From Meyerozyma guilliermondii (taxonomy: Eukaryota), in the NCBI GenBank assembly GCA_051546255.1, contig CP128815.1, positions 1 to 64,000 on the forward strand: 64,000 nucleotides of DNA. Reading direction: 5' to 3'. The notes under the pieces are model-generated. The model was given only the letters and a program-made list of their open reading frames with translations, was not told where the DNA came from and did not search any database. Shown piece by piece: positions 24,801 to 49,997 of the stretch. A program made the translations under genes and the position numbers. Within the stretch, counting starts at the first letter, position 1, and each line of letters begins with the position of its first letter.

Positions 24801-26379
24801 GGATATGACCACCTATGCTGACGCTTTAGTTGGTGTTGCTGGTGAAGGTTTGAATGTGGAGCAACGTAAACGTTTGACCATTGGTGTCGAGTTGGTTGCA
24901 AAGCCTAAATTGTTGTTGTTCTTGGATGAACCTACCTCTGGTCTTGATTCCCAAACTGCCTGGTCTATCTGTCAATTGATGAGAAAGCTTGCTGATCGCG
25001 GACAAGCCATTTTGTGTACTATTCATCAACCATCTGCTATCTTGTTGAAGGAGTTTGACCGTTTGCTTTTCTTGCAAAAGGGTGGAAGAACCGTCTACTT
25101 TGGTGATTTGGGAGAAAACTGTTCGACTTTGATCAACTACTTTGAAAAGTACGGAGCTGATCCTTGTCCAAAGGAAGCAAATCCCGCCGAATGGATGTTG
25201 CAAGTTGTCGGTGCTGCTCCAGGTTCGCATGCCAAGCAAGACTATTACGAGGTGTGGAGAAACTCTACCGAGTACCAGGAAGTTAACAGTGAATTGGACC
25301 ACATGGAAACTGAATTGTCTAAGCTCCCAAGAGACGAATCTCCCGAAGCCCGCAAATCGTATGCCGCTCCAATCTGGACCCAATACTGGTATGTCACCTG
25401 GAGAGTCATTATTCAAAATTGGAGAACTCCCGGTTACATTTACTCGAAATTGTTCTTGGCTCTTTCGTCCGCTTTATTCAATGGTTTCTCGTTTTTCAAG
25501 GCTAACAAGTCGATTCAAGGTTTGAACAATCAAATGTTTGCGGTTTTCATGTACATGGTTCCATTCAACACCTTGGTTCAACAAATGTTAACTTACTTTG
25601 TGAGACAAAGAGAGGTTTATGAAGTAAGAGAAGCACCCTCCAAGACGTTTAGTTGGTTCGCATTTATCACAGGTCAAATCACTTCTGAAATTCCTTTCCA
25701 AGTTGTTGTTGGTACCATAGCATTTTTCTGTTGGTACTACCCAGTTGGTCTTTATCAAAATGCTGTTCCTACTGACACTGTGAACGAACGTGGTGCCTTG
25801 ATGTGGCTACTCTTGACATCTTTCTTCGTTTACACTTCCACCATGGGTCAGATGTGTATTTCTTTCATCGAACTTGCTGACAATGCCGCTAATCTTGCAA
25901 CATTGTTGTTCAGCATGTGTTTGACTTTCTGTGGTGTTTTGGCTACTCCCGAAGCCATGCCTAGATTCTGGATCTTCATGTACAGATGTAACCCATTCAC
26001 ATACTTGATCCAGGGTATTCTTTCCACAGCATTGGCCAACTCAGACGTGGTTTGTGCAAGTCAAGAACTTCTTAAATTCAAGCCAGCCAATGGTCAAAGT
26101 TGTAAGGATTACATGGCACCCTACATTCAAAAAGCAGGAGGATACTTGCTTGACGGCGGATCGACCTTCATGTGTGAATTTTGTCCTACGTCGTCGACCA
26201 ACACTTTCTTGAAGTCTATCAACGCTCTTTACAGCGAAAGATGGAGAAACTTTGGAATCTACATTGCATTCATTGCAATTAATATTCTTTTAACGATTTT
26301 CTTCTACTACTTGGCTAGAGTGCCCAAGGGTAACAGAGAAAAGAAGAAGAAAACTAAACTAATACCATTAATAGATTAA
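21883..26379 (+). CDS. CDR1: PDR-subfamily ABC multidrug transporter (Cdr1-like)
   Basis: GRPGSGCST, VSGGERKRVSIAE, CWDNATRGLD, GSSGAGKTT, LNVEQRKRLTIGVEL, LDEPTSGLD; 1498 aa. Confidence 0.95.
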   Translation: MSPSKEYKDSRYSNANEEVEEYQGFDDAADKSIRELARTITNTSINMSKTKSSEDLIRYLSHMSQVPGVEPYNHEEIEESLNPESDMFNAKFWVKNVRKLFDSDPDYYKPTSLGVAYRDLRAYGIATDSDYQPTVTSALFKLGKDYIRSLRKQDPSIYFDILKNMDAIMKPGEVTVVLGRPGSGCSTLLKTIAAHTYGFHLGEESKITYDGLTMKDIENNFRGDVIYSAETDVHFPHLSVGDTLEFASRLRTPQNRGNVDRETYAKHMASVYMATYGLSHTRNTHVGNDFIRGVSGGERKRVSIAEVSLSGANLQCWDNATRGLDSATALEFIRALKTSATILDSTPLIAIYQCSQDAYDLFDNVVVLYEGRQIFFGKADVAKSYFMEMGYDCPQRQTTADYLTSLTNPEERVVFPGYEDKVPRTSVEFEEYWKKSPQYAALIKEIDEHMAKIEGNNHKEVYHNSHVARQSNHISPRSPYTVSFFMQTKYIMQRNIMRFKGDPSIPIFSVFGQLVMGLIISSVFYNLNQTTSSFYYRGAAMFFAVLFNAFASLLEIMSLFEARPIVEKHKKYALYRPAADALASIITELPVKLTMSMSFNFVFYFMVNFRRNPGRFFFYWLMCGVCTLVMSHMFRSLGAVSTSLAGAMTPATVILLAMVIYTGFVIPTPKMLGWSRWINYINPVGYVFEALMANEFSGRDFECAQFVPAGGPYDSVSLEERVCNTVGLRAGTTLVLGTQYLAEQYEYYNSHKWRNFGIAVAFAIVFLFVYILLTEINKGAMQKGEVVLFLRGSLKKHKRENAAKASHAKDIEAAPTDEKVEMKDHLDSQKYSTDHSSSNILPENANIFHWRNLTYEVKIKSETRVILDHVDGWVKPGQLTALMGSSGAGKTTLLNCLSERVTTGVISDGVRMVNGHSLDSSFQRSIGYVQQQDLHLPTSTVREALRFSAYLRQPNSVSKAEKSDYVEYIIDLLDMTTYADALVGVAGEGLNVEQRKRLTIGVELVAKPKLLLFLDEPTSGLDSQTAWSICQLMRKLADRGQAILCTIHQPSAILLKEFDRLLFLQKGGRTVYFGDLGENCSTLINYFEKYGADPCPKEANPAEWMLQVVGAAPGSHAKQDYYEVWRNSTEYQEVNSELDHMETELSKLPRDESPEARKSYAAPIWTQYWYVTWRVIIQNWRTPGYIYSKLFLALSSALFNGFSFFKANKSIQGLNNQMFAVFMYMVPFNTLVQQMLTYFVRQREVYEVREAPSKTFSWFAFITGQITSEIPFQVVVGTIAFFCWYYPVGLYQNAVPTDTVNERGALMWLLLTSFFVYTSTMGQMCISFIELADNAANLATLLFSMCLTFCGVLATPEAMPRFWIFMYRCNPFTYLIQGILSTALANSDVVCASQELLKFKPANGQSCKDYMAPYIQKAGGYLLDGGSTFMCEFCPTSSTNTFLKSINALYSERWRNFGIYIAFIAINILLTIFFYYLARVPKGNREKKKKTKLIPLID

Positions 26380-29805: not shown

Positions 29806-31089
29806 ATGGAGTCGATAATTATAGTTGGTGCCGGTACTTTTGGGCTTTCCACAGCCTTACAGCTTGCCAGAGATGGATACAAGAACATAAAATGTTTTGA
29901 CAAGTTTCCGGTTCCATCTGAGATAGCTGCTGGAAACGACAGTAACAAGATTTTTCACTACGATTATGTTGCTCCCCTGGCTAAACCCAATTCAAAAGAA
30001 CGGTTGAGTCTCGAAGCATTACACCTTTGGAAGACAGATCCGGTGTACAAACCGTACTATCATCCGGTAGGATTTATCCTGGCTGCAAGTTCCGATGCTC
30101 CATTACTGCATGATAAGGAATACTATGAAGAGTTGCAAAAAAACGGACTTCGCAATTATCGTTATATTTCAACTCCCGAGGAGTTTCGTGAGTATTTGCC
30201 CATTTTAAAGGGCCCGTTACCCAACTGGAGAGGATATGTTCTCGACGGAGATAACGGATGGTTGCATGCTCGAGACTCATTGAAAAGTGCATACGAAGAA
30301 TGCAAACGATTGGGAGTGGAATTTGTGTTTGGAGACGATGGGGAAATTGTCGAATTACTTAACGAAAATGGAAAGTTGACGGGAATTAGGGCCAGATCTG
30401 GTGCCATATTCTCGGCACAAAAATATGTTCTCAGCTCTGGTGCAAATGCAGTAACGTTGTTAAATTTCCAGAGACAGCTAGAAGGTAAATGTTTCACTTT
30501 GGCACATTTCAAAGTGACGGATGAAGAAGCTAAAGCATTTAAAAGCTTGCCGGTCCTTTTCAATGCCGAAAAAGGGTTTTTTTTCGAGGCTGATGAAAAT
30601 AACGAAATCAAAATTTGCAACGAGTACCCTGGATTTACCCACACAAATGAATCCGGAGAGTCTATCCCACTCTACCGGATGGAGATTCCACTCGAGTCAG
30701 CACTTGAAATTAGACAATACTTGAAAGAAACCATGCCTCAGTTTGCTGATAGACCTTTCACCAAGACAAGAATTTGTTGGTGTACCGACTCTCCCGACAT
30801 GCAATTGATCTTGTGTACTCACCCAGAATACACCAACCTTATTGTAGCATCGGGTGACTCTGGAAATTCGTTCAAGATCATGCCAATCATTGGCAAATAT
30901 GTCAGCAAGGTTGTTACCAAAGGTGATAAAGGATTGGATCCGGAAGATAAAGAATGCTGGAAATGGCGTCCTGAGACTTGGGACAAGCGGGGGCAGGTCC
31001 GCTGGGGTGGTCGATACCGTGTTGCGGATTTGAACGAAATTGAAGAATGGGTTTCTGTTGAAAATCCCACACCACACAAACTAGAATAA
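29806..31089 (+). CDS. Fructosyl-amine (fructosyl amino acid) oxidase / amadoriase, 427 aa
   Basis: IIIVGAGTFGLSTAL, AAGNDSNKI, RICWCTDSPD, ASGDSGNSFK, WKWRPE. From ATG 29806 the length and His51/Asn354 match my recollection of Pichia sp. N1-1 FAOD. Confidence 0.93.
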   Translation: MESIIIVGAGTFGLSTALQLARDGYKNIKCFDKFPVPSEIAAGNDSNKIFHYDYVAPLAKPNSKERLSLEALHLWKTDPVYKPYYHPVGFILAASSDAPLLHDKEYYEELQKNGLRNYRYISTPEEFREYLPILKGPLPNWRGYVLDGDNGWLHARDSLKSAYEECKRLGVEFVFGDDGEIVELLNENGKLTGIRARSGAIFSAQKYVLSSGANAVTLLNFQRQLEGKCFTLAHFKVTDEEAKAFKSLPVLFNAEKGFFFEADENNEIKICNEYPGFTHTNESGESIPLYRMEIPLESALEIRQYLKETMPQFADRPFTKTRICWCTDSPDMQLILCTHPEYTNLIVASGDSGNSFKIMPIIGKYVSKVVTKGDKGLDPEDKECWKWRPETWDKRGQVRWGGRYRVADLNEIEEWVSVENPTPHKLE

Positions 31090-31538: not shown

Positions 31539-33167
31539 ATGAGCTTTGAAACGGAAAAAAAGAACCAGCTGGTAGAGGTTGATATAGAAGAAATAAATTC
31601 CCAAGCTCCCGCTTTGGTTGTGCAAAATAAAGACGGAGAAGAATTGAAGCGTGCCCAAATTGTCGATCAACCAACAACTACAAAATGGGAAGTTTTCATG
31701 TATGCACTCTACTACTTTGGAAATAATGCTACTGGTCCTAATCACTTTACTCCTACGCAATATCAAAACTTGTTGAGTCAATCTGGTTGGATAAAAGGAA
31801 AATCAAATGTTTCATGCTCGGATGATCCAAATGGACTGTGTGTGGTATCTTTTGCCGGCACAGTCAAGACGGTGAATTCGGTTGTCTTGATAAATCTGGG
31901 CATCGGATTTGCGTTACAGTCGGTGGTTTTCTTGTTCCTTGGAGGGTTGTCTGATTATGGCCAGTTCGGTTCATGGGTACTCGTTGCCCTTTCTGTTTTG
32001 AGCTGGGGAGTTCAATTTGGTTTCTTGGGTGTACATGACGGAAGCAAACATCAAGCAGCTTTCGCATTGAGTATACTTTCTGCTTTAGGGTATCAAGGAT
32101 GTCAATCATTTTGGACTGCGATGTTTCCACGGTTGGCAAGAAATTTGCCCAAGACAAGAGCCGCTGAAGAAAAAATGCTTAACGGTTCAATCCTGGAATC
32201 TGAATACCATAAGGTGGACTCATACTATCGTAACAAAATCACAAACTACAGTCTTGCTTTTTCCATGTTGGGTTTCACCCTCGTGAGTGCCATTTCTGTT
32301 GGAATCTTAAAGTCGTTGGATTCTACTGCCAATCAAGCAAATAATAATTGGGCTATGTCTGTGTGTATAATGTTTGCAACCGTTTGGTGGATGGTGTTTG
32401 GTATTCCGTGGTTTTTCGCCGAAAAGAAAAGAGTCAATGAAAAGTTACCTGAAGGTGTGAGCTACTTGAGCTTGCCATTCAAACAATTGGGATATGCATT
32501 CAAGAGCTTTCTGAAATTGAAGCAAACTGCGTTATACTTGTTCTCTTACTGGATGTTAGGTGACGGTTTGAATACTGCTATTAGTCTTCAATCAACTATT
32601 CAAAACGAAGTGATTTCTTACGATATGGTCACTTCCATGTATTTGAATATGATCAATGGTGGTACCAATATTTTAGGTACGATATTGTTTTGGTGGTTCC
32701 AGAAAACTTTTAAAGTCTCCACAAGAAACATGTACATTATTTGTTCCGTTTTCATCACTTTGTTCCCAATTTATGGATTGATTGGAACGTGGACAAACAA
32801 GATTGGTTTCCACAACATATGGGAAGTTTGGTTTTATAACGCTTACTTTGGTATATTCATTGGTCCCTATTATGCATACTCATCTACGATGATGAGTGAA
32901 GTTTGTCCAAGAGGTAAAGAATTTGTGTTTTTTGCTATTTTTAGCACCATTAACAAGACTTCCAGCTTCATTGGACCTTTTGTTTCTTCCGCCATCATTG
33001 ACGACACAGGAAATAATAATAGTGGATTTTCATTCCTAGTGGCCCTTTGCTGTGTGTCATTGGCATCTTCATTTTTCTTGAACGAAGACAATGCAAGAGT
33101 TCAAGCTGAGGAGTTCTTACTTGAAGAGAAAAAGCGCATAGCGAATGGTGAATCGCTCGTGTTCTGA
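31539..33167 (+). CDS. ATG22-like MFS transporter, copy A (542 aa)
   Basis: About 12 TMs; GGLSDYG, FWTAMFPRLARN, GDGLNT, SEVCPRG.EF.FF..FS.INK.SSFIGP. First ATG at 31539. Confidence 0.85.
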   Translation: MSFETEKKNQLVEVDIEEINSQAPALVVQNKDGEELKRAQIVDQPTTTKWEVFMYALYYFGNNATGPNHFTPTQYQNLLSQSGWIKGKSNVSCSDDPNGLCVVSFAGTVKTVNSVVLINLGIGFALQSVVFLFLGGLSDYGQFGSWVLVALSVLSWGVQFGFLGVHDGSKHQAAFALSILSALGYQGCQSFWTAMFPRLARNLPKTRAAEEKMLNGSILESEYHKVDSYYRNKITNYSLAFSMLGFTLVSAISVGILKSLDSTANQANNNWAMSVCIMFATVWWMVFGIPWFFAEKKRVNEKLPEGVSYLSLPFKQLGYAFKSFLKLKQTALYLFSYWMLGDGLNTAISLQSTIQNEVISYDMVTSMYLNMINGGTNILGTILFWWFQKTFKVSTRNMYIICSVFITLFPIYGLIGTWTNKIGFHNIWEVWFYNAYFGIFIGPYYAYSSTMMSEVCPRGKEFVFFAIFSTINKTSSFIGPFVSSAIIDDTGNNNSGFSFLVALCCVSLASSFFLNEDNARVQAEEFLLEEKKRIANGESLVF

Positions 33168-34042: not shown

Positions 34043-35966
34043 ATGAAAAGAATACGTCGAGGAACCAAACGCGGAGGATGCTTGGCTTGCAAGAAACGAA
34101 AGTAGGTATAGTGTTATGTCTTTAAGAATGTGGATTTTAACCTTACAGTAAACAATGTGACTACAATACGAAAAAAAATGCTTGTTCCTTTTGTTTGCGA
34201 GTTAACATTCCATGCGAAAGACCTGGCTTTAGTGTAATTGCATACAATGGAAACAAAAAGAAGGAGCCAATTAGTCTCAAGTTCAACCCGCTAAATAATC
34301 AGCAAAGAATAAATTTTGAGCTTTGCAATGAAATCATTAGCGATTATTTATCTTCAGCCAATCGGTGTGATTTAACTTCATTTACCATAATAACCCCGGG
34401 CATCGAAAGTATCTACGAAAGAAGTTTAACATTCTCCGAACATTTGATTTTGTATGAAAAAACTAGAGAAATTCCTCTTGTTGATGATAAAACGTCTATC
34501 GAAAGGTCTACCAAAACCGCATTTGGCATTCAAAGTGCAAACGAACTACCTCATAGGATAGCAACTTCTAAGAAGAGGATTTACCTGGAACCTAGAATTG
34601 AATTTGTGTCTGACAAAGTACCTGCGGATATTCTGAATCACGATTTACGTGATATCGATACTGGCAATTTTATCAATGAATTATTCATACAAATGCCAGC
34701 TTTAAAACTGCAAAAATTACATGTACCCAATTACATTTCTTTACAATCTGCAAGTGCATTATTCAACAGCTTTTGTTTGGAATTTCCTCAGGAAACTTGC
34801 AAACTATTCTATGCAACTTGTGATGAGAATTCAATTGCATATCGTGATTTCACCAAGCTATCTTTGAAGGTTTATATTTCGCTTGCATTCAGCAATATTA
34901 CAGTATTCAAGGCTCTCCTATATTGGTCAGCCTCATACTTCCAGCTGAAGGAGAAATCTGTTGAAGAATCACTTCTATCGAAGCTTATGAACGACATTGT
35001 TCAAGACATGAACAAAAGATTGATTTACAAATCTTCTGCCTGTTGTGATCATATGATCGCAATAGTGTGTATTTTGTTTGAAGTGGAAAATTTGAAACAG
35101 CAAGTGGACTCCAAATTTTGGTTGAAGCTTACGGGCTTGGCCATTAAAATACTTTCAATGAGAGGAGGCGTCGATCAACTAAGTAAAACGAATATGGGTT
35201 TTTCTTTGCGAGATTATTTGGAACATATTTCTTTACTAGATTCGGGTTTAATCTCTTGGATCATGAAATGCAAAGGTTTAACATACAAGACATGCAATCG
35301 ATATACATGTTACCTGCCGCTTCCAATCCAAATTCATATTATAAGTGTATGAAGAGCATTTGTTCTGTTGTTGGTGAGTCCTTACATCTTTACAACTTGA
35401 AGAAGGTCGCCATAAATGCCGATGATCTTAATGAGCTGTTAGGATATAACCATTACCAGAACATTGAAACTGTGATCAAAGATGCGAAGTTTCTATTAAA
35501 ACAATTGAGTTCAATAGATGTTCCTGATGATGATTCTGAGATAATGAGAATCGATTCTCATATAATGAGACGCATTGCAGAGTTCTCAAAAGAGGCAACA
35601 GTCCTATTGATATATCAGTTGATATACAATAATTCATCTAGGACAACCACAACTTTGCTTCAAGTTATGAAGATGATACCTTTACTTCGAGAATTGTTTG
35701 AATTGTATCATTCAAATCAAAACTCCACGCAAGTACTTTTAATACTTCCTATTTTTGTTCTTGGTTGTAACCTTTATAAACATTCTTATCGGAGGTGGTT
35801 CATTGAAAATATTGACCGGATTTATTTGAAAACAAAAACTGCTAAAATTTTGACTGTTAAAACATTGGTTAAAAAAGTGTGGACCTTGGACGATAATGGT
35901 AATAAACCAGTACAATGGCCGGAAATAAGTGAGCACGAGGGACTATTATTGCCTTTTTATATCTAA
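34043..35966 (+). CDS. Zn(II)2Cys6 transcription factor with a 47-nt intron (34102-34148) and a single-base frameshift near 35199-35203
   Basis: Splicing GTAGGT...TTTAAC..TACAG gives CLACKKRNKQCDYNTKKNACSFCLRVNIPC in frame with ORF 34195. Adding one T in the T5 run joins ORF 34195-35352 to ORF 35256-35966 (..MGFFFARLFG..LILPIFVLGC..). Confidence 0.85.
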
Positions 35967-35985: not shown

Positions 35986-37038
35986 TTACCTCTTTCTTGT
36001 GTTGGCGGTATACTCTTTTTCAATTTCTTCGACCAAGGTTCCTACCATATAAGCTGCACCATATGAAAAGGCATAGCCTTTACCATTGAATCCATAAGCA
36101 TGAAGGATGTACTTGTTCTTCGCAACCTGTTCTTTTTCCAATCTAAACCCTCCTTTTCTAGCAGGTCTTATTCCAACGACATAACCCGCAATATCAGGCG
36201 CTTTTGAAATCACCTCAGGTGCGAGCTTATGAGCTCTTCTGATTTCATCCTCAACAATTTCCATATCAATGTCAGCGTGAGTTTTATTGGGTTCATTCAC
36301 ACCTCCACAAACCACTACCCCAGAGAGTGGCCGAGGTATTACATATGTATACTCTTCACCGCTACGACTAAACCCTTTGTCAGTTTTCGTCCGAACAAGC
36401 ACATTTTGTCCTCGATTGGGATAGCATTTATCATCTTCCAACCCTTTGATTGTCATAGGTCCAATTCCAGATGCGTTAACAAAAACGATACTATCTTCGT
36501 AGTCTTGATAGAGCTCATCCATGGATGCAATTGATCTGCAAATAAAGTGGCCGCCAAGGTTTTCAATCTCTTGTTTTATGAATTTGAGATAACGACGAGG
36601 CTCGATTGCTAATGTTTCATACTCACAACCATATTCAAACCCAGTACCCTCATATTTTGATTTTTCCATATCTCTGAACTTTGGATTTACTCCCTTAAAC
36701 CATAGGTCCAGATCCTTGGGTTTTTTCTCAAAATATTCATCTAATTGAATAACACATACTCCACATTCAGGACTATTGAAGTTGTCACTCTTGAACCGGC
36801 GGTATGATACTGCCTCTAGATAACGATGGAGATCGTTAGGTAAGTCTGGAGCACCATGCCACAATGCACCAGCCCAGGTTGACGCATACCATATATCTTC
36901 GTCGCCAGGAAGATGTTTGGCAACAATCGTGACTTGAAATCCCTGCTGCAATAAGGTTCTTGCGGTGACACAACCGATAATTCCAGCACCTAAAACGACA
37001 ATTCTTCTTTCCTGAAATGGACTGCTACCTAATGACAT
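35986..37038 (-). CDS. D-amino-acid/D-aspartate oxidase family flavoprotein
   Basis: IVVLGAGIIG, YASTWAGA, VNASGIG, YPNRGQ, TYVIPR, VGIRPARKGG.R, HAYGFNG.GY..SYG. First ATG at 37038. Confidence 0.92.
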   Translation of the reverse strand: MSLGSSPFQERRIVVLGAGIIGCVTARTLLQQGFQVTIVAKHLPGDEDIWYASTWAGALWHGAPDLPNDLHRYLEAVSYRRFKSDNFNSPECGVCVIQLDEYFEKKPKDLDLWFKGVNPKFRDMEKSKYEGTGFEYGCEYETLAIEPRRYLKFIKQEIENLGGHFICRSIASMDELYQDYEDSIVFVNASGIGPMTIKGLEDDKCYPNRGQNVLVRTKTDKGFSRSGEEYTYVIPRPLSGVVVCGGVNEPNKTHADIDMEIVEDEIRRAHKLAPEVISKAPDIAGYVVGIRPARKGGFRLEKEQVAKNKYILHAYGFNGKGYAFSYGAAYMVGTLVEEIEKEYTANTRKR

Positions 37039-37683: not shown

Positions 37684-39312
37684 ATGAGTTTTGAAGAGGA
37701 AAAAAAGAACCAGCAAGTAGAGGTGGACATAGAGGAGGTCAATTCTCAAGCTCCCGCTTTGGTTGTGCAAAATAAAGACGGCGAAGAATTAAAGCGGGCT
37801 CATATTGTAGATCAACCAACAACTACAAAATGGGAAGTTTTCATGTATGCACTCTACTACTTTGGAAATAATTCTTCCGGCCCCTCTTCTTTCACGCCCA
37901 CCCAGTATCAGAACTTGTTGAGTCAATCTGGTTGGATAAAAGGAAACCGGAAAGCTTCATGTTCGGATGATCCCAACGGACTGTGTGTGGTTTCGTTTGC
38001 CGGTACGACCAAGACAGTGAATTCGGTGGTGTTACTTAACCTGGGCATTGGTTTTGCATTGCAATCGGTGGTTTTCTTGTTTCTTGGAGGTTTGTCCGAT
38101 TATGGCCAATATGGTTCTTGGGTACTTATAGGCCTTTCGTTGTTGAGTTGGGGAGTTCAATTGGGCTTCTTGGGTGTTCATGATGGAAGCAAACACGAAG
38201 CAGCTTTTGCATTGAGTGTGCTTGCCTCGTTAGGGTACCATGGATGTCAATCTTTTTGGACGGCCATGTTTCCACGTTTGGCAAGAAACTTGCCAAAGAC
38301 AAGAGAAGCAGAAGAAAAAATGCTCAATGGCACAATTCTGGAATCTGAGTATCACAGTGTTGACTCTTACTATCGTAACAAAATCTCAAATTACAGTTTT
38401 GCATTTTCCATGGTTGGTTTCGTGCTCGTGTGTGCCATTTCAATTGGCATTTTGAAGGGCATGGATTCTACCGCCAGTGATGCGAACAACAATTGGTCTA
38501 TGTCCATCTGTATTATGACTGCAACAGTGTGGTGGATCGTATTTGGTACTCCTTGGTTCTTCACCGAAAAGAAAAGAGTCAATGAAAAGTTACCCGAAGG
38601 TGTGAGCTACTGGACCTTACCCTTTAGACAATTGGTATATGCGTTCAAGAGTTTTGTGAAGTTGAGGCAAACTGCGTTATACTTGTTCTCCTACTGGTTG
38701 TTGGGTGATGGCTTGAACACCTCTATAAGGCTTCAATCGACTATTCAGAACGAAGTGATATCTTACGATATGGTCACTTCCATGTACATGAACTTTCTTA
38801 ACGGTGGCACCAGCATAGTAGGTGTGTTAATGTTCTGGTGGCTCCAGAAAACCTTCAAAATTTCCACGAGAAACATGTACATTTTGTGCTCTATTTTCAT
38901 TACGTTGTTTCCACTTTACGGATTGATTGGAACCTGGACAAACAAAATTGGTTTCCATAACGTTTGGGAAAATTGGTTCTACAACGCCTACTATGGTTTG
39001 CTCATTAATCCGTATTATGTATATTCATCAACAATGATGAGTGAAGTTTGTCCAAGAGGAAGGGAATTTGTGTTTTTCGCCATTTTCAGCACTATTAACA
39101 AAACCTCAAGTTTAATTGGACCTTTTGTTTCCTCCGCCATCATTGAAGACACGGGAAACAATAATACTGGGTTCTCCTTCCTTGTGGCAATATGCATCTT
39201 GTCGTTGGTGTCCTCATGTTTCTTGGATCAAGACAAGGCAAGAGTTCAGTCTGAGGAGTTTTTACTCGAGGAACAAAGACGGATAGCGTATGGTGAGTCG
39301 CTCATATTCTAA
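37684..39312 (+). CDS. ATG22-like MFS transporter, copy B (542 aa)
   Basis: Colinear, same-length paralogue of copy A (31539-33167). First ATG at 37684. Confidence 0.85.
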   Translation: MSFEEEKKNQQVEVDIEEVNSQAPALVVQNKDGEELKRAHIVDQPTTTKWEVFMYALYYFGNNSSGPSSFTPTQYQNLLSQSGWIKGNRKASCSDDPNGLCVVSFAGTTKTVNSVVLLNLGIGFALQSVVFLFLGGLSDYGQYGSWVLIGLSLLSWGVQLGFLGVHDGSKHEAAFALSVLASLGYHGCQSFWTAMFPRLARNLPKTREAEEKMLNGTILESEYHSVDSYYRNKISNYSFAFSMVGFVLVCAISIGILKGMDSTASDANNNWSMSICIMTATVWWIVFGTPWFFTEKKRVNEKLPEGVSYWTLPFRQLVYAFKSFVKLRQTALYLFSYWLLGDGLNTSIRLQSTIQNEVISYDMVTSMYMNFLNGGTSIVGVLMFWWLQKTFKISTRNMYILCSIFITLFPLYGLIGTWTNKIGFHNVWENWFYNAYYGLLINPYYVYSSTMMSEVCPRGREFVFFAIFSTINKTSSLIGPFVSSAIIEDTGNNNTGFSFLVAICILSLVSSCFLDQDKARVQSEEFLLEEQRRIAYGESLIF

Positions 39313-39583: not shown

Positions 39584-40597
39584 TTATGAACACTCTCCAT
39601 TCTGTGGGATTGGTCGTTCCTTCGGCACCGTCACAAGACCCTTGGCCTCCTTGGTTTTCATCTGAATAACGCAAAGGAGGTTATAAATCAATTCTAAATT
39701 GGGGCAAGAAACATTGTTCCTTTTCGCAGTTCTAACGGCATTTCCACAGATGACTTCTGACTCGATATAGTTTCCCTTACGAAGGTCAACCAACATGGAA
39801 GGAGAATAATAGATCCCGTCGTCTGAACGAATCATAAAATCCATAATGTCTTCTGGAAGATCAACCCCATCAGATTTTGCAATTGCCAACACTTCTCTCA
39901 TGGCGCTTCTGACCATGGAATCAACTCCTCCAAAAAGTTCGAGTCTTCCCACATCGACTCCAGTCAAGGTACAAATTGAATTGAGGGTAGCATTATATAC
40001 CAACTTGCGCCATCTGGTGTACTTGACATCTTCATCGTAGGTGCATTCATTCTTTCCATTCAGGTATATTGACACAAACCTTTCACTGGCATTTTTTTGA
40101 GATTCAATACTCAAATTTTCGTTTATAAAATAGCCAATTTTCAACGAATCCTTACCCTCGTGATGAATGAAACCATTGTGGTTTGTAGACGAAATCATAC
40201 TAACTCCACTCAAAACAACATTTTTCGGATACCTCTTGATAACGTCAGCACCAATATCAACTCCATTTTGAAGCAAAACTATGGTGGAAGTTTCGGAAAC
40301 AAGTGGTGCTACCAAATCTTCCACTTTGAAAATGTCAGGGAGATTTTTCGTGGTGACCAAAATATACTCAAAAGGACCATATTCCACAGCTTTTTCAACG
40401 CTATCAACTACATTAGTAGGTTTAAACGACTCAACATGGCCATAATCACATGAGTCAATTTTGTATCCTTTGTTCACCACAACATTATAATCAGACCTAA
40501 CCACCGCAGTGACGGAAGCTTTACCTCCCAACTCTAGCCCATAAGCTGCAATGGTGCCAACACCTCCAGAACCAATTAGTACAATGTTACTTTTCAT
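39584..40597 (-). CDS. Ketopantoate reductase (ApbA/PanE) family oxidoreductase
   Basis: LIGSGGVG, LVTTKN, VLLQNGV, RWRKLVYNA, YSPSMLVD, ESEVICGN. Confidence 0.9.
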   Translation of the reverse strand: MKSNIVLIGSGGVGTIAAYGLELGGKASVTAVVRSDYNVVVNKGYKIDSCDYGHVESFKPTNVVDSVEKAVEYGPFEYILVTTKNLPDIFKVEDLVAPLVSETSTIVLLQNGVDIGADVIKRYPKNVVLSGVSMISSTNHNGFIHHEGKDSLKIGYFINENLSIESQKNASERFVSIYLNGKNECTYDEDVKYTRWRKLVYNATLNSICTLTGVDVGRLELFGGVDSMVRSAMREVLAIAKSDGVDLPEDIMDFMIRSDDGIYYSPSMLVDLRKGNYIESEVICGNAVRTAKRNNVSCPNLELIYNLLCVIQMKTKEAKGLVTVPKERPIPQNGECS

Positions 40598-41137: not shown

Positions 41138-41917
41138 TCATTTCACCAACGAATCAACCAACGATTCGGGGACATCGCACAATTGGACCTCCAACGTTCC
41201 GAGCAAATAGAACAGGTCCAACTTTGGATTGTAAGATAGTTCAATTGCTTTGTCGAGGTGCTCTTTCGTAATAGCCGGTCCAAATGGAGTGGCACAAAAA
41301 TAGCGTGCCAATGCAAATGTCAAGACTTGAAAGTTTGCATGGTCTGGCTTTAGGTGAATAATCAAGTAGATGAGAACTTCACTTATTCCAAGAGTATCTC
41401 GAGGAAGCAATGTGCATTTGAGCCAACTCGTGGGAATCCTTTCTTCCCCCACGGCTTTCATCTGAGCATAGTAAAGTGATGGTAACGTTCGGCCATACAT
41501 TTCCAAATATTCGAAATCATGATTGGGAGAGTGACGTACCTCCTTGTCAGATATGAAAGATTCTAGACATTCTATCAACTTCTTGCAAATTCTCACTAAA
41601 ATGAACTCTTGATCCTGGTACAATCGTTTATCATTGATATTGTATCTGGTTAAAAATTCGTTCAACAGAATAGTTTCACCAACTTTTGGCGAGTAATCTT
41701 CAATCATTTTTTTCAATTCAACATTAGTTAATGTGTTATGTTCCAAAATTTCGCAGCCATGTAGTGCTGCAATCTCATTTTCGAGCCGTGCATTTTCTCG
41801 CTCTAAAGCTTCGACTTTGGCTTCAAGAAGATTGAAACGCTCAGCATTCCGCATACGTAGCTTCTGCTGCGACTGGCGCATCCGTTCCAACCTCTTTTCT
41901 CTCTTTTCATCAATCAT
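41138..41917 (-). CDS. Atypical Yap-like bZIP protein, copy 1
   Basis: Basic region KRLERMRQSQQKLR plus leucine zipper; C-terminus (TLGISEVL..H..LTFALARYFCATPFGPAI..HLDKAI) resembles the Yap/PAP1 C-terminal domain. Confidence 0.8.
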   Translation of the reverse strand: MIDEKREKRLERMRQSQQKLRMRNAERFNLLEAKVEALERENARLENEIAALHGCEILEHNTLTNVELKKMIEDYSPKVGETILLNEFLTRYNINDKRLYQDQEFILVRICKKLIECLESFISDKEVRHSPNHDFEYLEMYGRTLPSLYYAQMKAVGEERIPTSWLKCTLLPRDTLGISEVLIYLIIHLKPDHANFQVLTFALARYFCATPFGPAITKEHLDKAIELSYNPKLDLFYLLGTLEVQLCDVPESLVDSLVK

Positions 41918-41947
41918 GGTAGTTTTTCAGTTGTACTTTTGAATGTC

Positions 41948-42024
41948 TTAGTAATGTGAATCACCATTTTCGCGCATGAATCACGATGTTCGGGTGTGAA
42001 TCACGATTTTTGGATGTGAATCAA
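41948..42024. promoter_or_regulatory. Yap site TTAGTAA followed by four (G/A)TGAATCA(C) sites at about 20-bp spacing
   Basis: TTAGTAA 41948-41954; sites at about 41955, 41976, 41995 and 42015. Confidence 0.7.
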
Positions 42025-42163
42025 CTCCGACTAACAAAGAGGAGCACAATCCGCTGTTCTGGTGATGTACCACGAGCGATTGCTGCAAAAATGGGTTCCA
42101 CTTAATAAGCCCACTTAATAAACCCCTGTAGTATAAATAGATGGAACAACCCAGTTCTCTCCA

Positions 42164-42961
42164 ATGACTTCGTATTTTGTGACTGGAACTTCCAGAGGAA
42201 TTGGTTTGGGTTTGGTCAAGGAAATCTTGAAAAGCCCAAACGCTACTGTTTTTGCTCTTGTTAGAGGTTCTTCCAACACTGACGAGTTGAAAGCTATCAA
42301 GTCTTCCAGACTTCACATTGTGACTGCTGATATTTCCAACACATCTGAAGTCGATGAAGTAGTTAAGCAAGTTGAAAAAATGACCAGCTCGTTGGATGTG
42401 ATTATCTTGAACGCTGCGTTCCCTATGTCAGACTTCAAAACCCCTTTGCAATTAACCGAGACCCCAGAAGCTTTCAAGGAGTTCGTTGAAGAGTCAAACA
42501 AGATCATGTATGTCAACACCTATTCTCAACTTTATGTGGCCAACAAGTTTCGTCCCTTGCTCTCCAAGGGAGAAAAAAAGAAGATTGTTTTCGTATCTTC
42601 TGGTCTCGGCCATGCTGGTTGGGTTTATAAGGGAGGTCAGCATTACATGACGTCTTATGCTTCCAGTAAAGCGGCTCTTAACCTCATCGTTGCTCAACTC
42701 GGTGCTGTTCTCAGAAGCGAAGGATTCACCGTGCTTGGACTCTGTCCCGGAATTGTCAACTCCGGTCGGTTAGCCGATGAGGAAGTCGAACAAACCTACG
42801 GAATTTTCTTTTCGGGCGCCAGAAGAGTCAACCCTACATTCAAGGGAATTTTGCTGTTGGAAGAGGCAAGTACCAGATTCATGCAAGCGGTTGAGTTCTA
42901 CGGCCCAATGTCCAACGGAAGATTCATTAGCGCCAACGGAACCGACGATGTGTTTGCTTAG
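42164..42961 (+). CDS. Short-chain dehydrogenase/reductase (YKL071W/Osi1-like), copy 1
   Basis: TGTSRGIG, LDVIILNA, VSSG, YASSK, LCPG.V. Confidence 0.9.
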   Translation: MTSYFVTGTSRGIGLGLVKEILKSPNATVFALVRGSSNTDELKAIKSSRLHIVTADISNTSEVDEVVKQVEKMTSSLDVIILNAAFPMSDFKTPLQLTETPEAFKEFVEESNKIMYVNTYSQLYVANKFRPLLSKGEKKKIVFVSSGLGHAGWVYKGGQHYMTSYASSKAALNLIVAQLGAVLRSEGFTVLGLCPGIVNSGRLADEEVEQTYGIFFSGARRVNPTFKGILLLEEASTRFMQAVEFYGPMSNGRFISANGTDDVFA

Positions 42962-43370
42962 ACTTGCTTAGACCATAGGTATTCGCTTAGGAAGCTAGGA
43001 ATAAAGCCGGAGCTAAAAGAGATGTAATTAAGGTAAGAAATTAATTCTCATTTTTTGCAGCCGCAGCTGATGAATTAGCCGAGACGAATCGTCGTTGGTG
43101 TTCAGTCATGTTCTGGCAGGATTACAGTAATTTCTGTAAATTTCAAGCAATTCGTGGCCTTATCTTTGGTGCCGACAAATAAAAGTGGTCAATTAGCGTA
43201 ATTCTAGAAACAGACGAACTTCTTACCAAGAACTTGCTCTCGTTCCAATTAGTATCCCTGTTAATGTTCTTGAAAATTATTCTTCGCTACTATGTTAATG
43301 GCATTAAGGCTAGAAGTGATAAGTTTGAGTATGGTGGACCCTAGTATTAGAGACTTGTTTCTTGCTTTTT

Positions 43371-44150
43371 TCACTTCACTAACGAATCAACCAAAGACTC
43401 GGGTACATCGCACAATTGGACCTTCAATGTTCCGAGCAAATAGAACAAGTCCAATTTTGGATTGTAAGATAGTTCAATTGCTTTGACAAGGTGCTCTTTC
43501 GTGATAGCCGGTCCAAATGGTGTGCCACAAATATAACGTGCCAATGCAAATGTCAAGACATGAAAGTTTGTATGGTCTGGCTTTAGGTGAATATTCAAGT
43601 AAATGAGAACTTCACTTATTCCAAGAGTATCTCGAGGAAGCAATGTGCATTTGAGCCAATTCGTAGGAATCCGCTTCTCCACCACGGCTTTCATCTGAGC
43701 ATAGTAGATTGAAGGTAAGCTTCGACCATACATTTCCAAATATTTGAAACTGTGATTGGCAATGTGAAGTACCTCTTTGTCAGATACAAAGGCTTCTAAA
43801 CAATGTATCATCGTTTTGCAAATATTCACCAAAATAAACTCTTGATCTTGGTACAACCGCTTATCATTAATATTGTTTCTGATTATGAATTCGCTCAACA
43901 GGATAGTTTCACCAACATTGGGCGAGTAAACGTCAATCATCTTTTTCAAATCAACATTGGTTAAAATGTACTGTTCCACAGTATCGCAATCTACTAGTGT
44001 TGCAATCTCTTTTTCAAGTTCCGCATTTTTCACTTTTAAAGATTCGATTTCTGATTCAAGAGAGTTGAAACGTTCAGCTTTACGCAAACGTAGCTTATGC
44101 TGCGACTGCCGCATCTGTTCCAACCTCCTTTGTCTCTTTTCATCTAGCAT
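43371..44150 (-). CDS. Atypical Yap-like bZIP protein, copy 2
   Basis: Same length (259 aa) and colinear with copy 1; basic region RRLEQMRQSQHKLR. Confidence 0.8.
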   Translation of the reverse strand: MLDEKRQRRLEQMRQSQHKLRLRKAERFNSLESEIESLKVKNAELEKEIATLVDCDTVEQYILTNVDLKKMIDVYSPNVGETILLSEFIIRNNINDKRLYQDQEFILVNICKTMIHCLEAFVSDKEVLHIANHSFKYLEMYGRSLPSIYYAQMKAVVEKRIPTNWLKCTLLPRDTLGISEVLIYLNIHLKPDHTNFHVLTFALARYICGTPFGPAITKEHLVKAIELSYNPKLDLFYLLGTLKVQLCDVPESLVDSLVK

Positions 44151-44174
44151 AGTATCAGAAGTATTTTGGATGTC

Positions 44175-44341
44175 TTAGTAATGTGAATCACAATTTCGGT
44201 GTGAATCACAATTTCGGTGTGAATCACAATTTCGCGTGTGAATCACAATTTCGGTAAAAACCACTATTCTCCGTGTGATTATCTCCGTGTGAATCACATT
44301 TCGCGGCCCAAATTCTCCTGGAAATTCTTCTGTGATTCACA
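44175..44341. promoter_or_regulatory. Yap site plus four tandem 18-bp TGTGAATCACAATTTCGG units and two further TGTGAWTCACA palindromes
   Basis: TTAGTAA 44175-44181; units at 44182, 44200, 44218, 44237; extra palindromes at 44288 and 44331. Confidence 0.8.
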
Positions 44342-44414
44342 GCATCGACCTAAAATGCTTGCCACTTATTAAGCCAATGTAGTATAAATAGATCAAAATA
44401 CTCTCTTCTTACCA

Positions 44415-45212
44415 ATGACATCGTATCTCGTTACTGGAGCTGCTAGAGGAATTGGTTTGGGTTTGGTCAAGGAAATATTGAAAAAACCTGACACTACTGT
44501 TTTTGCACTTGTTAGAGGCTCTTCCAAAATCGACGAGTTGAAAGCTATCAAGTCTTCAAGACTTCATATTGTAACTGCCGACATTTCTAACCCCTCTGAA
44601 GTCGATGAGGTTGTTAAGCAAGTTGAAAAATTGACCAGCTCATTGGATGTGATTATCTTGAGTGCTGCCCTCCTTGAGATCAGCCTCAAGACACCATTGG
44701 AGTTGACAGAGTCTCCGGAAGCTTTCAAGGAGTTTGTTGAAGAGTCAAACAAGATCATGTATGTCAACACCTATTCTCAACTTTATGTGGCCAACAAGTT
44801 TCATCCTTTGCTTTCCAAGGGAGAAAAAAAGAAGATTGTTTTCGTATCTTCTGGTCTCGGCCATGGCGACTGGGTATATAAGGCTGGCCATCAACGCTTG
44901 ACGGCTTACTCAATGGGTAAGGCTGCTCTTAACCTCATGGTTGCTCAACTCGGTGCTACGCTTAGACACGAAGGATTCACTGTGCTTGCTCTCTGTCCCG
45001 GTATTGTCAATTCCAGTAGAGCACCCCTCGAAGAAGTCGAGGAAAACTATAAAATTTTCTTTGATGCCGCCAGAAGAGTCAACCCTACATTCAAGGGAAT
45101 TTTGCAGGTGGAAGAAGCATGTACCAGATTCATGGAAGCTGTTGAGTTCTATGGTCCTATGTCCAACGGAAGGTTCATTAGCGCCAATGGAACCCACGAC
45201 GTATTTGCTTAA
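44415..45212 (+). CDS. Short-chain dehydrogenase/reductase, copy 2
   Basis: TGAARGIG, YSMGK; 265-aa colinear paralogue of 42164-42961. Confidence 0.9.
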   Translation: MTSYLVTGAARGIGLGLVKEILKKPDTTVFALVRGSSKIDELKAIKSSRLHIVTADISNPSEVDEVVKQVEKLTSSLDVIILSAALLEISLKTPLELTESPEAFKEFVEESNKIMYVNTYSQLYVANKFHPLLSKGEKKKIVFVSSGLGHGDWVYKAGHQRLTAYSMGKAALNLMVAQLGATLRHEGFTVLALCPGIVNSSRAPLEEVEENYKIFFDAARRVNPTFKGILQVEEACTRFMEAVEFYGPMSNGRFISANGTHDVFA

Positions 45213-45449
45213 ATAGATAATGCAAAAACCTCCTAAAAACCAAATGAGAAAAGTTAATTTTCGCGCGATTTTGCAGCCGCGGCTGATAAGAAATATTCAA
45301 AGCGAGATTCAAAGTACGATTCGTAAATACATGTTTTGGTGACCACAATCTGTTGATTCAGTTCCATTGATTACATTCTGTTGAGTATATTCTCAAGGTG
45401 ACATCCCGCTGACCAATTTGCTGAAATCTTCATAAACTAATATTTTCAC

Positions 45450-46010: not shown

Positions 46011-47678
46011 CTAAACTTTCTCATCCAACGTCTGGTCAATGTTATGTATCTCCCGGCCCTCAATGGAAGAAGCCAGTTCATCAAGGTTGGATTTGGGACC
46101 GCTGTAGACTTTGTAGCCATACACATAGTAGTAAACCAACGATAAGATCCAAACTCCCACATTGATAACACTGGCATAGTTCATGGATTCCTTATCGACC
46201 AGTTTACTGGATGGAAACATCGACATGACAATGACATACAGCGTCCATGCCACAGTAACACAATGAATCATGGTGGTTATTGTTTTACCAAAATAAAATG
46301 GTCCAGGAACAAATCTCAGTTTCCCCGTAGGAAGCAATACAAGAAACACAGGCATTCCCCAGGCAAATGTGTTTCCTGCCACAGCCAACGAGAATAACGC
46401 ACCAGAGGCGGTGGGGCCAACCAAGATCAATAAACCAACGAGCAATGAAAGACAACCACCAAATATGGTAGCTCTAACAGGAACCTTTATCTTTGGGTTC
46501 ACGACCTTGACAATATTATAGAAAAACGGCAAACCATCGTCTCTACTAAACGCCCATATTTGTCTTGACGCAGCAATAAGAATCGATGCTCCCATAAGGT
46601 ATTGAGCAAACGCAATAATAGACATAAATGCAACTGCCCATCGTTTCCCCAACGCATCATAAATGATTTAAGCCATGGCCAGCCCCGTACTGGACTCCAT
46701 AACTGCGGCAACATCACCGTTCTTGATACATGCCGTGGCACAGATACAAATGAACCATCCAAGAATACCACACACACTAATGGAACCTATAATACCAATT
46801 GGAATGGATTTTTTCGATTTGGCTTCTTCCGACATGTGCACGCATGAGTCGAACGCACCAATGGTCCAAATTGCTGGCATCCAAGAAAGCATAAATGACC
46901 AGCCAGTGGTCCAAGTGAGATTATTTTCAAGTTGACCAAAGATGAACAGACCATCATTGAATCCGTGCTTGGAGGCACCAATAGGAACAGCAATGAAGAA
47001 CAAAATGATCAAAAACACATTAGCATAGATGGAAAACGCTTGTAAGAACGCCGTATGTCTGCTGGCAATAGAGCACAAAACAACGTGAGAAACTGTGCAA
47101 CCAGCGAAAACCCCATAATTCTTTGCATTAGTGATTGAAAAATCACCATCTTTACTGATAAAGACAGCTGAAAGAACCTCAGTTGCAAAACCAGAATTGA
47201 TCAGGCAGAATCCTCCACAGAGAGCGAGCGTATTGGAGCATCCCACCATGAAACTCAATGGAACTCTAAAGCTGTCAGGGCAGTAATAATTAGTCCAGTA
47301 GTACAATCCACCGGAAGTAGGAAGCAGCGAAGCCAATACTGACATTGAGGTTCCCACGCATAAAATGAACAACGAACTCACAATCCAACCCCATACCAAA
47401 CCAACAGGCCCGGCTTCATACCCAGTAGCCATAGTACTTGCAATCGATGGAAGCAACCCCATAATCGAGAATGCAATTCCAAACACCTGGATTGTGGAAT
47501 AGTTTCTGTTCAACTCTTGCTTATATCCAATTTGAGCCAAAAGTTCAACCTCGTCATCGACATGTTCGATACTACGAATTTCAGATCGGCTGGATGTAAT
47601 GGCATGGATATGTTCTCCTGTCCTCGACCGCATGGTGGATAACACACCAGCGGAGTTGTGGGTATTTGCTGGAAGCAT
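46011..47678 (-). pseudogene. UGA4: UGA4-like APC GABA/polyamine permease interrupted by one in-frame stop (46668-46670)
   Basis: LAQIGYKQEL.R, PTSGGLYYW, WTIGAFDSCVHMSEEA, ..AMA*IIYDALGK, SRQIWAFSRD.GLP; both halves are in the same frame. Confidence 0.85.
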
Positions 47679-49490: not shown

Positions 49491-49997
49491 TTATAACGTT
49501 GGTAGATCCAATGAAATATCAGGTAAATCACCTCTTCCTTCAAAAATCTCATCGATCGATGCTTGTTCGGTTATCAAGTACCTATTGGTTGCAATTCCAA
49601 TTCTAGAAAGCTCTCTCCACCGCTCCAAATCTTCCCGCTTGTCTCCGTGTGCTTGCTCTGGATGCTCCCAATGACCCTGAGAAAAGGCCATGAACGTAGT
49701 AATACGTTTATTTTCAATATCCAAAATCAACGACACAACGGTTCCAGTTTCTTCTAACCAATTGACTTGCCATAAATTTTTCCTCACTCTCTGGTAGTAA
49801 CATGTCTGAAAGTTGTGCCGTCCAGCCATTGGCCCCCCATGAATCGAGTATACAATTCGTTTGTCATTGGGAACATGGAACTCGTATTTCCAGCCATTAT
49901 CATAAGTGTACTGAAAATGCTTGTTTTTCAATTCCTGGTCAAATTCTTCCTGAGGAACCTGAGCGGCGTCGACTCCAATAAGTGGTTGGTAGGACAT
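49491..49997 (-). CDS. Cofactor-free phenolic acid decarboxylase (PadC type), 168 aa
   Basis: YTYDNGWKYE, IHGGPMAGR, WLEETGT.VS motifs; length matches my recollection of C. guilliermondii PAD. Confidence 0.92.
   Translation of the reverse strand: MSYQPLIGVDAAQVPQEEFDQELKNKHFQYTYDNGWKYEFHVPNDKRIVYSIHGGPMAGRHNFQTCYYQRVRKNLWQVNWLEETGTVVSLILDIENKRITTFMAFSQGHWEHPEQAHGDKREDLERWRELSRIGIATNRYLITEQASIDEIFEGRGDLPDISLDLPTL

Follow-up and report, generated by a model that had tools for sequence, protein, structure and literature searches.

Two tandem bZIP–reductase gene pairs of Meyerozyma guilliermondii with methionine at the basic-region asparagine position and palindromes in their shared promoters

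Within the first 64,000 nucleotides of Meyerozyma guilliermondii contig CP128815.1 (GenBank assembly GCA_051546255.1; this whole stretch is called the window below), we found two tandem cassettes of about 2.2 kb, each pairing a gene for a basic leucine zipper (bZIP) protein with a divergently transcribed gene for a short-chain dehydrogenase/reductase (SDR). In both bZIP proteins a Met takes the place of the near-invariant Asn of the basic region, a replacement that defines a small protein family, and all copies in the window of the palindrome GTGAWTCAC (W being A or T) lie in the two promoters that regulator and enzyme share. We tentatively favor the reading that each cassette encodes a Yap8-like dedicated regulator of the neighboring reductase. 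The original prediction, made from the sequence letters, had seen here an autoregulated sensor–detoxifier switch; it gains from the duplication of the cassette as a unit, the purifying selection on its genes, the conservation of the non-canonical bZIP and the confinement of the palindrome to the promoters, while its assignment of the bZIP C-terminal domain to the PAP1/Yap1 kind was not borne out.

Two copies of one regulator–enzyme unit

Four intact open reading frames (ORFs), translated with the CTG-clade code (table 12), stand in the order bZIP (-), SDR (+), bZIP (-), SDR (+) (Table 1). Their coordinates leave shared divergent promoters of 246 bp in cassette 1 and 264 bp in cassette 2, in agreement with the earlier description of two tandem copies built around some 250 bp. 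Reading CTG as Ser or as Leu alters 2, 1, 1 and 0 residues in the four proteins and leaves the conclusions unaffected. Among the ORFs of the window that look real, CTG codons are rare (0–9 per ORF), which fits a CTG-clade yeast, and a tRNA scan aimed at settling the genetic code detected 0 tRNA genes.

The paralogs align free of gaps, with 78% identity between the bZIPs and 82% between the SDRs. Because the DNA likeness between the cassettes sets in at the stop codon of the bZIP gene and ends at that of the SDR gene, with flanks that are unalignable, the duplicated unit comprises regulator, promoter and enzyme. Purifying selection acts on both gene pairs, as seen from a synonymous divergence (dS) of 0.43 with a nonsynonymous-to-synonymous ratio (dN/dS) of 0.27 for the bZIPs, and a dS of 0.51 with a dN/dS of 0.21 for the SDRs; the proportion of differing synonymous sites (pS) is 0.33–0.37, or 33–37%, in the two pairs. 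Relatives hold separate orthologs of copy 1 (P0002, 90% identical) and of copy 2 (P0004, 93%; P0005, 84%), and the duplication therefore predates those splits, with both copies retained.

The sole part of the flanks that can be aligned is a 3' element, GCAGCCGCRGCTGAT (15–19 bp), which matches the window twice, once past each SDR gene, where 0.01 matches are expected, and which probably marks the far edge of the duplicated unit. Its second copy holds a perfect 12-bp palindrome, CAGCCGCGGCTG, with a CCGCGG center. A Zn-cluster-type site and a 3'-end signal are possible roles, as is the mere edge of the duplicated unit.

To judge from their sequences, the two enzymes are ordinary classical short-chain reductases of a sniffer-like kind. 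Pfam adh_short recognizes SDR-1 at 92.5 bits and SDR-2 at 89.8 bits (cut-off 26.6), the cofactor motif TGxxxGIG occupies residues 7–14 (TGTSRGIG and TGAARGIG), and the catalytic YxxxK reads YASSK and YSMGK. The nearest solved structures are 7xwh (E=4.3e-20), itself an uncharacterized SDR for which a literature search with the code 7XWH of the Protein Data Bank (PDB) found no relevant paper, and the two sniffer structures 1yo6 (E=1.1e-16) and 1sny (E=2.1e-10). The window SDRs agree with these sniffer-type carbonyl reductases in length, in the cofactor motif and in the catalytic Tyr-x3-Lys. Their nearest named relative, an 'uncharacterized oxidoreductase' of [Candida] jaroonii, is just 40% identical. 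The 49 differences between SDR-1 and SDR-2 cluster at residues 83–100, 151–168 and 201–218, regions that line the substrate site in SDRs generally.

At these 49 diagnostic sites, the SDR of one relative (P0006) follows copy 1, then copy 2 over about residues 130–185, then copy 1 again, and another protein (P0008) is copy 2 with a single copy-1 residue at position 130. Such mosaics point to gene conversion that has mixed the two copies in a related strain or species, or else to an assembly chimera.

A bZIP family with methionine in the basic region

Pfam bZIP_1 scored copy 2 at 34.2 bits and copy 1 at 25.5 bits (gathering cut-off 27.6), and matched 14 of 23 family members at E<=0.1. The two copies share one DNA-contact signature, MxxSQxxLR, in an N-terminal basic region, and the spacing read off the sequence, M13-x7-R21-x9-L31-x6-L38-x6-L45-x6-L52, is that of canonical bZIPs. 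The zipper has Leu at 31, 38, 45 and 52 (four heptads) and a GCN4-like Asn42 at an 'a' position. Its closest counterpart by sequence is GCN4 (E=0.0053), and alignments to CREB, Jun and GCN4 all keep the bZIP register. When the family profile is aligned with the CREB bZIP (5zko, E=2.9e-4), the M falls opposite CREB's Asn; copy 2 against Jun (1s9k_E) gives the pairs M13/N, S16/A, Q17/A, L20/C and R21/R.

For the extent of the family, a profile of six close sequences was searched against 1.84 billion representatives, yielding 19 proteins at E<=0.001, 12 of them at E<=1e-10 and 4 at E<=1e-30. One match, P0055, was left out of the alignment: in its 6770 aa just six short stretches matched, of which the best covered profile positions 64–90. 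The resulting 23-row alignment (A3) comprises P0002, 17 distant matches, P0003–P0005 and the two window copies, the 17 distant members being 21–33% identical to the window protein. Among the aligned members with a residue there, position 13 is Met in 21 of 22 and Val in 1, with Asn in 0 of 22. The surrounding basic-region positions are likewise kept: Gln at 17 and Leu at 20 in all 22, Arg or Lys at 21 in 21 of 22, R14 in 21 of 22, Ser at 16 in 14 of 22 (Ala in 7), Arg at 9 in 18 of 19 and Leu at 10 in 19 of 19. In the zipper, L31 is present in 21, L38 in 20 and L45 in 18 of 22. The replacement of Asn by Met, as originally noted for both bZIPs, is thus upheld by the CREB and Jun alignments and by the family. 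Since the Met is kept in proteins so distant from the window protein, it is a conserved, family-defining residue and no recent lesion or sign of decay, and the MxxSQxxLR proteins form a small family. By way of contrast, N-x7-R is found in all 44 bZIPs of Fusarium fujikuroi, according to a passage of PMC9223689.

Word-index searches for family relatives (5 and 7 proteins found) gave none with an informative name. No paper on this Met-bZIP family was found by literature searches, among them searches on the motif and on the conserved Asn, which is not proof of absence; the searches on 'invariant' or 'conserved asparagine' found a study of Zta and no Met-bZIP. Among the matches listed, those for GTGAATCAC held only primers or unrelated topics, and those for TGAATCA with bZIP included none on yeast.

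Three relatives (P0004, P0005 and P0043) have predicted proteins that start exactly at the conserved Met, which is residue 13 of both bZIP copies (41879–41881 in copy 1, 44112–44114 in copy 2). These may be truncated gene models, or an internal start may give a form without half of the basic region.

The zipper surfaces have diverged between the two bZIP copies, with the DNA-contact residues unchanged. Under a simple rule on charges at the e and g positions, which is a heuristic, copy 2 and its orthologs would each form, as homodimers, 4 attractive g-e' pairs and no repulsive ones (net +4), and the heterodimer of copies 1 and 2 comes to net -2. A palindromic site fits a homodimer.

Beyond the zipper, each protein has a C-terminal domain of about 200 aa. 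AlphaFold2 (AF2) on the 23-row alignment gave a confident and mostly helical model, at a mean predicted local distance difference test (pLDDT) of 85.4 and a predicted template modeling score (pTM) of 0.69. A first model, built on an alignment of six sequences, was discarded (pLDDT 50.8). Two Cys are conserved, C117 in 19 and C247 in 17 of 23 members, alongside W165 and P172 in all 23. The early description of this domain as Yap/PAP1-like with a conserved Cys holds for the Cys and is not supported for the homology. Pfam PAP1 (PF08601) matched 0 of 23 members at E<=0.1, the C-terminal domain searched by itself gave nothing in Pfam at E<=10, and a profile search of the PDB gave no significant match to a PAP1/Yap1 redox domain. 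Foldseek found no PDB match to the domain model at E<=0.001, the Yap1 redox domain 1sse_B ranking 22nd (E=5.4, template modeling score 0.52 over 64 columns). With Pfam, PDB profile and Foldseek all non-significant, homology to the PAP1/Yap1 redox domain is not supported. The PAP1-bearing clusters that the ESM Atlas returned (0.90 for the whole protein, 0.83 for the C-terminal part) are leads only by that tool's own calibration. A regulator of the DUF3425 type was rejected, as PF11905 matched 0 of 23 members. The C-terminal domain belongs to no known family.

Promoter elements and what may read them

The clearest promoter signal is the palindrome. The window contains GTGAWTCAC 8 times, against an expectation of 0.70, and every copy falls within one of the two promoters. 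Of 100 shuffles, 0 reach 8; the multiple palindromes first reported for both promoters are thereby confirmed. Of the perfect 9-mers, 2 are in promoter 1, which also carries ATGAATCAC and GTGAATCAA, and 6 are in promoter 2. The 11-bp extension TGTGAWTCACA occurs exactly 6 times in the window, always in promoter 2, and twice with one mismatch in promoter 1. Across the ten TGAWTCA cores of the two promoters the core is invariant (10/10, the central base always A or T) and the flanks tG..C hold in 9/10, with the spacers falling to 40–70%. The cores number four in promoter 1, at 20-bp spacing, and six in promoter 2, at spacings of 18, 18, 19, 51 and 43 bp. Since the arrays form tandem repeats with 20-bp and 18-bp periods, the sites are not independent events. 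The short core TGAWTCA is not enriched in the window by itself (21 against 21.9 expected). Outside the two promoters, TGAATCAC occurs once in the window, at 34634, just upstream of the ORF at 34693–35352.

A second conserved feature is a 28-bp block containing TTAGTAA and the first palindrome, identical at 27 of 28 positions between the promoters against the pS of 0.33–0.37 in the adjoining genes. The coding part next to this block is the most diverged stretch of the bZIP gene (dS 0.53, dN 0.21). TTAGTAA was correctly foreseen as occurring once per promoter; it is not enriched in the window (5 against 8.26 expected, and TTAWTAA shows no enrichment either), and its weight comes from its position within the 27/28 block. 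CTTAWTAAG has just two matches in the window, at homologous positions in the two promoters, and is weak by count, 7 of 100 shuffles reaching 2.

Beside this box lies a TATA element, TATAAATA, in a conserved block ahead of each SDR gene (Table 1). In S. cerevisiae the TATA-to-start distance is 40–120 bp. Here the element stands closer, 32 bp from the ATG, so that either the leader is very short or start sites follow a different rule from the S. cerevisiae one. A start codon farther downstream is not an option for the SDRs, whose cofactor motif opens as early as residue 7.

The closest known system is Yap8. Excerpts of bioRxiv 10.1101/614503 describe five residues, NxxAQxxFR, with which the Pap1 subfamily contacts the TTAC half-site; in Yap8 the invariant Asn has become Leu and the Ala has become Ser, giving LxxSQxxFR. 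Leu26 of Yap8 is required for DNA binding, L26A abolishing it and L26N being tolerated, as a passage of PMC3865217 reports. Parts of PMC6545440 describe one kind of site alone that Yap8 recognizes, the 13-bp pseudo-palindrome TGATTAATAATCA, which has an A at its center and is found between the divergent ACR2 and ACR3 genes; they further describe the only targets of Yap8, which adjoin its own gene, sensing in which Cys132, Cys137 and Cys274 participate, and a patchy distribution among yeasts. A bZIP lacking the Asn thus has a precedent.

The window proteins resemble Yap8 (Arr1) in several respects. Both are small bZIPs with the basic region near the N-terminus, with a hydrophobic residue for Asn (Leu26 in Yap8, Met13 here), Ser for the contact Ala, and Gln and Arg kept (LxxSQxxFR against MxxSQxxLR). 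In both, the regulator gene adjoins divergent-promoter genes, which are detoxification targets in Yap8 and a putative target here, and the known or candidate site is an extended palindrome or pseudo-palindrome with a central A/T and TGA/TCA elements. C-terminal Cys form the sensor in Yap8 and two are conserved here, and the phylogenetic distribution is patchy in either case. They differ in other respects: Met and Leu here stand against Leu and Phe in Yap8, exchanges of like for like that fall short of identity, the neighbor is an SDR rather than an arsenate reductase or efflux pump, and arrays of 4–7 TGTGAWTCACA sites replace the single 13-bp TGATTAATAATCA. In addition, the bZIP gene here itself shares the promoter, and the whole module is tandemly duplicated.

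Two other groups offer partial likenesses. With Yap1, Cap1 and Pap1 the window proteins share a fungal bZIP, Gln at +4 and a hydrophobic residue at +7, together with TTAGTAA in both promoters, but they lack the Asn, have no PAP1 domain that Pfam recognizes and are much shorter. With AP-1 and Gcn4 they share the overlapping half-site layout TGA-N-TCA and a zipper nearest GCN4 with its 'a'-position Asn. However, the AP-1 site TGA(C/G)TCA differs from the A/T-centered window sites, whose palindrome extends to 11 bp, and the window protein lacks the Asn and two Ala contacts of these bZIPs. In S. cerevisiae the uncharacterized SDR YKL071W is strongly targeted by Yap1, and its induction exceeds 70-fold in trr1 mutants, according to a passage of PMC4172583.

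Under the Yap8-like reading, a dimer of the Met-bZIP would bind those palindromes of the shared promoter that have A/T at the center. It would control the NADPH-type carbonyl reductase encoded next to it and, probably, the bZIP gene as well. The likeliest sites would be the TGTGAWTCACA array, 4 in promoter 1 and 6–7 in promoter 2, some 80–230 bp upstream of the SDR start, with the CTTAWTAAG box beside the TATA element as the second candidate. TTAGTAA would probably add a general oxidative-stress input of the Yap1/Cap1 type, and the C-terminal domain with its two conserved Cys may receive the signal. After duplication of the unit, the DNA-contact residues and the palindrome would have been kept as the zipper surface and the substrate regions of the SDR diverged.

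Several observations weigh against this reading. We infer binding of the palindrome by the Met-bZIP from their co-location in one window, and SDR regulation, autoregulation and sensing likewise. Part of the high site number comes from slippage or unequal exchange and not from selection site by site, and 9 of the 10 sites share one orientation. The array begins 37–43 bp upstream of the bZIP ATG, which leaves little room for a core promoter; it may coincide with, or fall within, the core promoter or the 5' leader of the bZIP gene, where autorepression is possible. The chimeric P0006 suggests that the copies exchange sequence, which could homogenize the promoter blocks. By the e/g rule the copy-1 homodimer is net 0, and its ortholog P0002 is net -4. 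In excerpts of PMC8756438, the non-polar replacements N182I and N182V of the Zta Asn abolish sequence-specific binding on arrays, which by analogy argues against assuming AP-1-like binding by the Met-bZIP. Finally, the Yap8 signature L..SQ..FR is present in none of the 17 aligned matches of the close-family profile (of 19 at E<=0.001), and the likeness to Yap8 may be convergent.

The best-surviving alternative, which we nevertheless consider unlikely, is that another factor binds the array, whether a canonical AP-1/Gcn4-type bZIP or some other A/T-tolerant one. The Met-bZIP would then be merely a neighbor or co-regulated, with any binding of its own at TTAGTAA or CTTAWTAAG. This alternative draws on the TGAWTCA core, which differs from the AP-1 site at the central base alone, and on the Gln and hydrophobic residue that the family keeps from the Pap1-type signature reading TTA half-sites (described in part of bioRxiv 10.1101/614503). 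It also draws on the TTAATAA box, whose core is that of the Y8RE element as given in a portion of PMC6545440, and on the place of the array 79–228 bp upstream of the SDR start, a normal upstream-activating distance for which no link to the bZIP gene is needed. However, the site of a general factor would be expected elsewhere too, and in 64 kb the full 9-mer is found nowhere else and TGAATCAC only the one time. Identical contact residues in both paralogs, together with the same palindrome in both promoters, also weigh against this alternative.

We regard as improbable a second alternative, in which the Met-bZIP does not read DNA itself. By zipper pairing it would instead inhibit or retarget a canonical bZIP, for example the Yap1/Cap1 homolog, in the manner of CHOP-type bZIPs. 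The Zta result would fit such a modulator (PMC8756438, in part), as would a copy-1 zipper that is not predicted to favor homodimers and a conserved TTAGTAA for a Yap1-type partner in both promoters. However, the rest of the basic region (R9, L10, R14, Q17, L20, R/K21) is conserved more strongly than expected of a non-binder, the copy-2 zipper favors homodimers, and the hydrophobic residue at the Asn position can be needed for binding in Yap8 (as a passage of PMC3865217 has it).

Least probable of all, we believe, are neutral, non-regulatory minisatellites that the duplication carried along and that inter-copy exchange has kept alike, an explanation to which the tandem periods of 18 and 20 bp, the 96% self-identity of the promoter-2 array (implying recent expansion) and the paralog exchange documented by P0006 lend something, but which is opposed by a 7-bp core invariant amid variable spacers, by the sites at 44288 and 44331 outside the array with different flanks and, in one, the opposite central base, and by the strong divergence of the coding sequence adjoining the 28-bp block, which argues against a conversion tract.

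Returning to the Yap8-like reading, what is known in kind from Yap8 is a bZIP without the Asn that stands beside few targets and reads an extended palindrome. New here are the Met family, the SDR partner, the multi-copy TGTGAWTCACA array, the promoter shared with the regulator gene, and the tandem duplication of the whole module. A wider proposal, which we put forward as doubtful, is that these proteins represent an undescribed, narrow family of Asn-less yeast bZIPs with an origin separate from Yap8 and an 11-bp code of its own, TGTGAWTCACA, in which Met would replace the Asn contact. Each member would be wired to one neighboring enzyme and to itself, and the 2.2-kb unit would duplicate and diverge whole, leaving two modules with the same code and with separate dimerization surfaces and substrates.

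In the bZIP basic region the Asn counts as invariant, and among yeasts Yap8 has been the one exception studied well. Another conserved family, with a hydrophobic residue other than that of Yap8 and a 10-copy candidate site beside its gene, would give a handle on DNA recognition without Asn, and would also test whether loss of the Asn accompanies narrow regulons made up of neighbors only. The duplicated module is a natural experiment on the divergence of a regulator and its target once duplicated, in which the contact residues are kept and the zipper and enzyme pocket differ. Its practical value is modest: it might be used as a compact inducible pair of promoter and regulator, or help to trace what an uncharacterized reductase acts on.

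Table 1. Coordinates in the window of the genes and conserved elements of the two cassettes
Feature	Position	Strand	Remark
bZIP copy 1	41138-41917	-	259 aa ORF
Conserved 28-bp block, promoter 1	41937-41964		TTAGTAA at 41948-41954 plus first palindrome; starts 20 bp upstream of bZIP-1 ATG
Four TGTGAATCAC-type sites, 20-bp spacing	41955-42025		Cores at 41957, 41977, 41997, 42017
CTTAATAAG palindrome, then second copy CTTAATAAA	42101-42122		Core TTAATAA equals Y8RE core (PMC6545440, in part)
TATAAATA box (TATA)	42132-42139	+	32 bp 5' of SDR-1 ATG, in 16/16 conserved block
SDR copy 1	42164-42961	+	265 aa ORF
Conserved 3' element GCAGCCGCAGCTGAT	43057-43071		96 bp past SDR-1 stop
bZIP copy 2	43371-44150	-	259 aa ORF
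Conserved 28-bp block, promoter 2	44164-44191		TTAGTAA at 44175-44181 plus first palindrome
Four exact TGTGAATCACA sites, 18-19 bp spacing	44182-44255		Tandem Repeats Finder (TRF): 18-bp period, 4.1 copies, 96% matches
Degenerate TGTGATTATC site	44274-44283		Promoter 2
TGTGAATCACA site outside array	44288-44298		Promoter 2, different flank
TGTGATTCACA site outside array	44331-44341		Opposite central base, different flank
CTTATTAAG palindrome	44365-44373		Homologous position to 42101-42109
TATAAATA box (TATA)	44383-44390	+	32 bp 5' of SDR-2 ATG, in 16-bp identical block
SDR copy 2	44415-45212	+	265 aa ORF
Conserved 3' element GCAGCCGCGGCTGAT	45273-45287		61 bp past SDR-2 stop

Other genes in the window

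The window holds a further pair of related genes, for ATG22-like transporters (31539–33167 and 37684–39312) of 542 aa each, which are 84% identical and so have about the same divergence as the cassettes. Each has genes for a Zn2Cys6-type factor and an oxidoreductase of the DAO family nearby; the DAO genes (29806–31089 and 35986–37038) are not paralogs of one another, giving only a 23% local match.

Downstream of the second cassette, an amino-acid permease is split by a TAA stop and a frame change into two ORFs on the minus strand, 46011–46625 and 46668–47678, with an N-terminal part covering AA_permease_2 positions 2–253 and a C-terminal part covering 278–426. It is probably a pseudogene or the product of a sequencing frameshift. 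Of the overlapping ORFs at 34693–35352 and 35268–35966, the second alone has a fungal-specific transcription-factor domain, and no Zn-cluster was detected in them; the gene may be broken or contain an intron.

The window is rich in genes for the handling of small molecules, for example at 1783–2703, 21883–26379 and 49491–49997. Its genes include a PDR/CDR-type ABC transporter (1498 aa), a phenolic acid decarboxylase, a pyridine-nucleotide disulphide oxidoreductase, a ketopantoate-reductase-like protein (39584–40597), a beta-galactosidase with a sugar transporter, and a CAP-family secreted protein.

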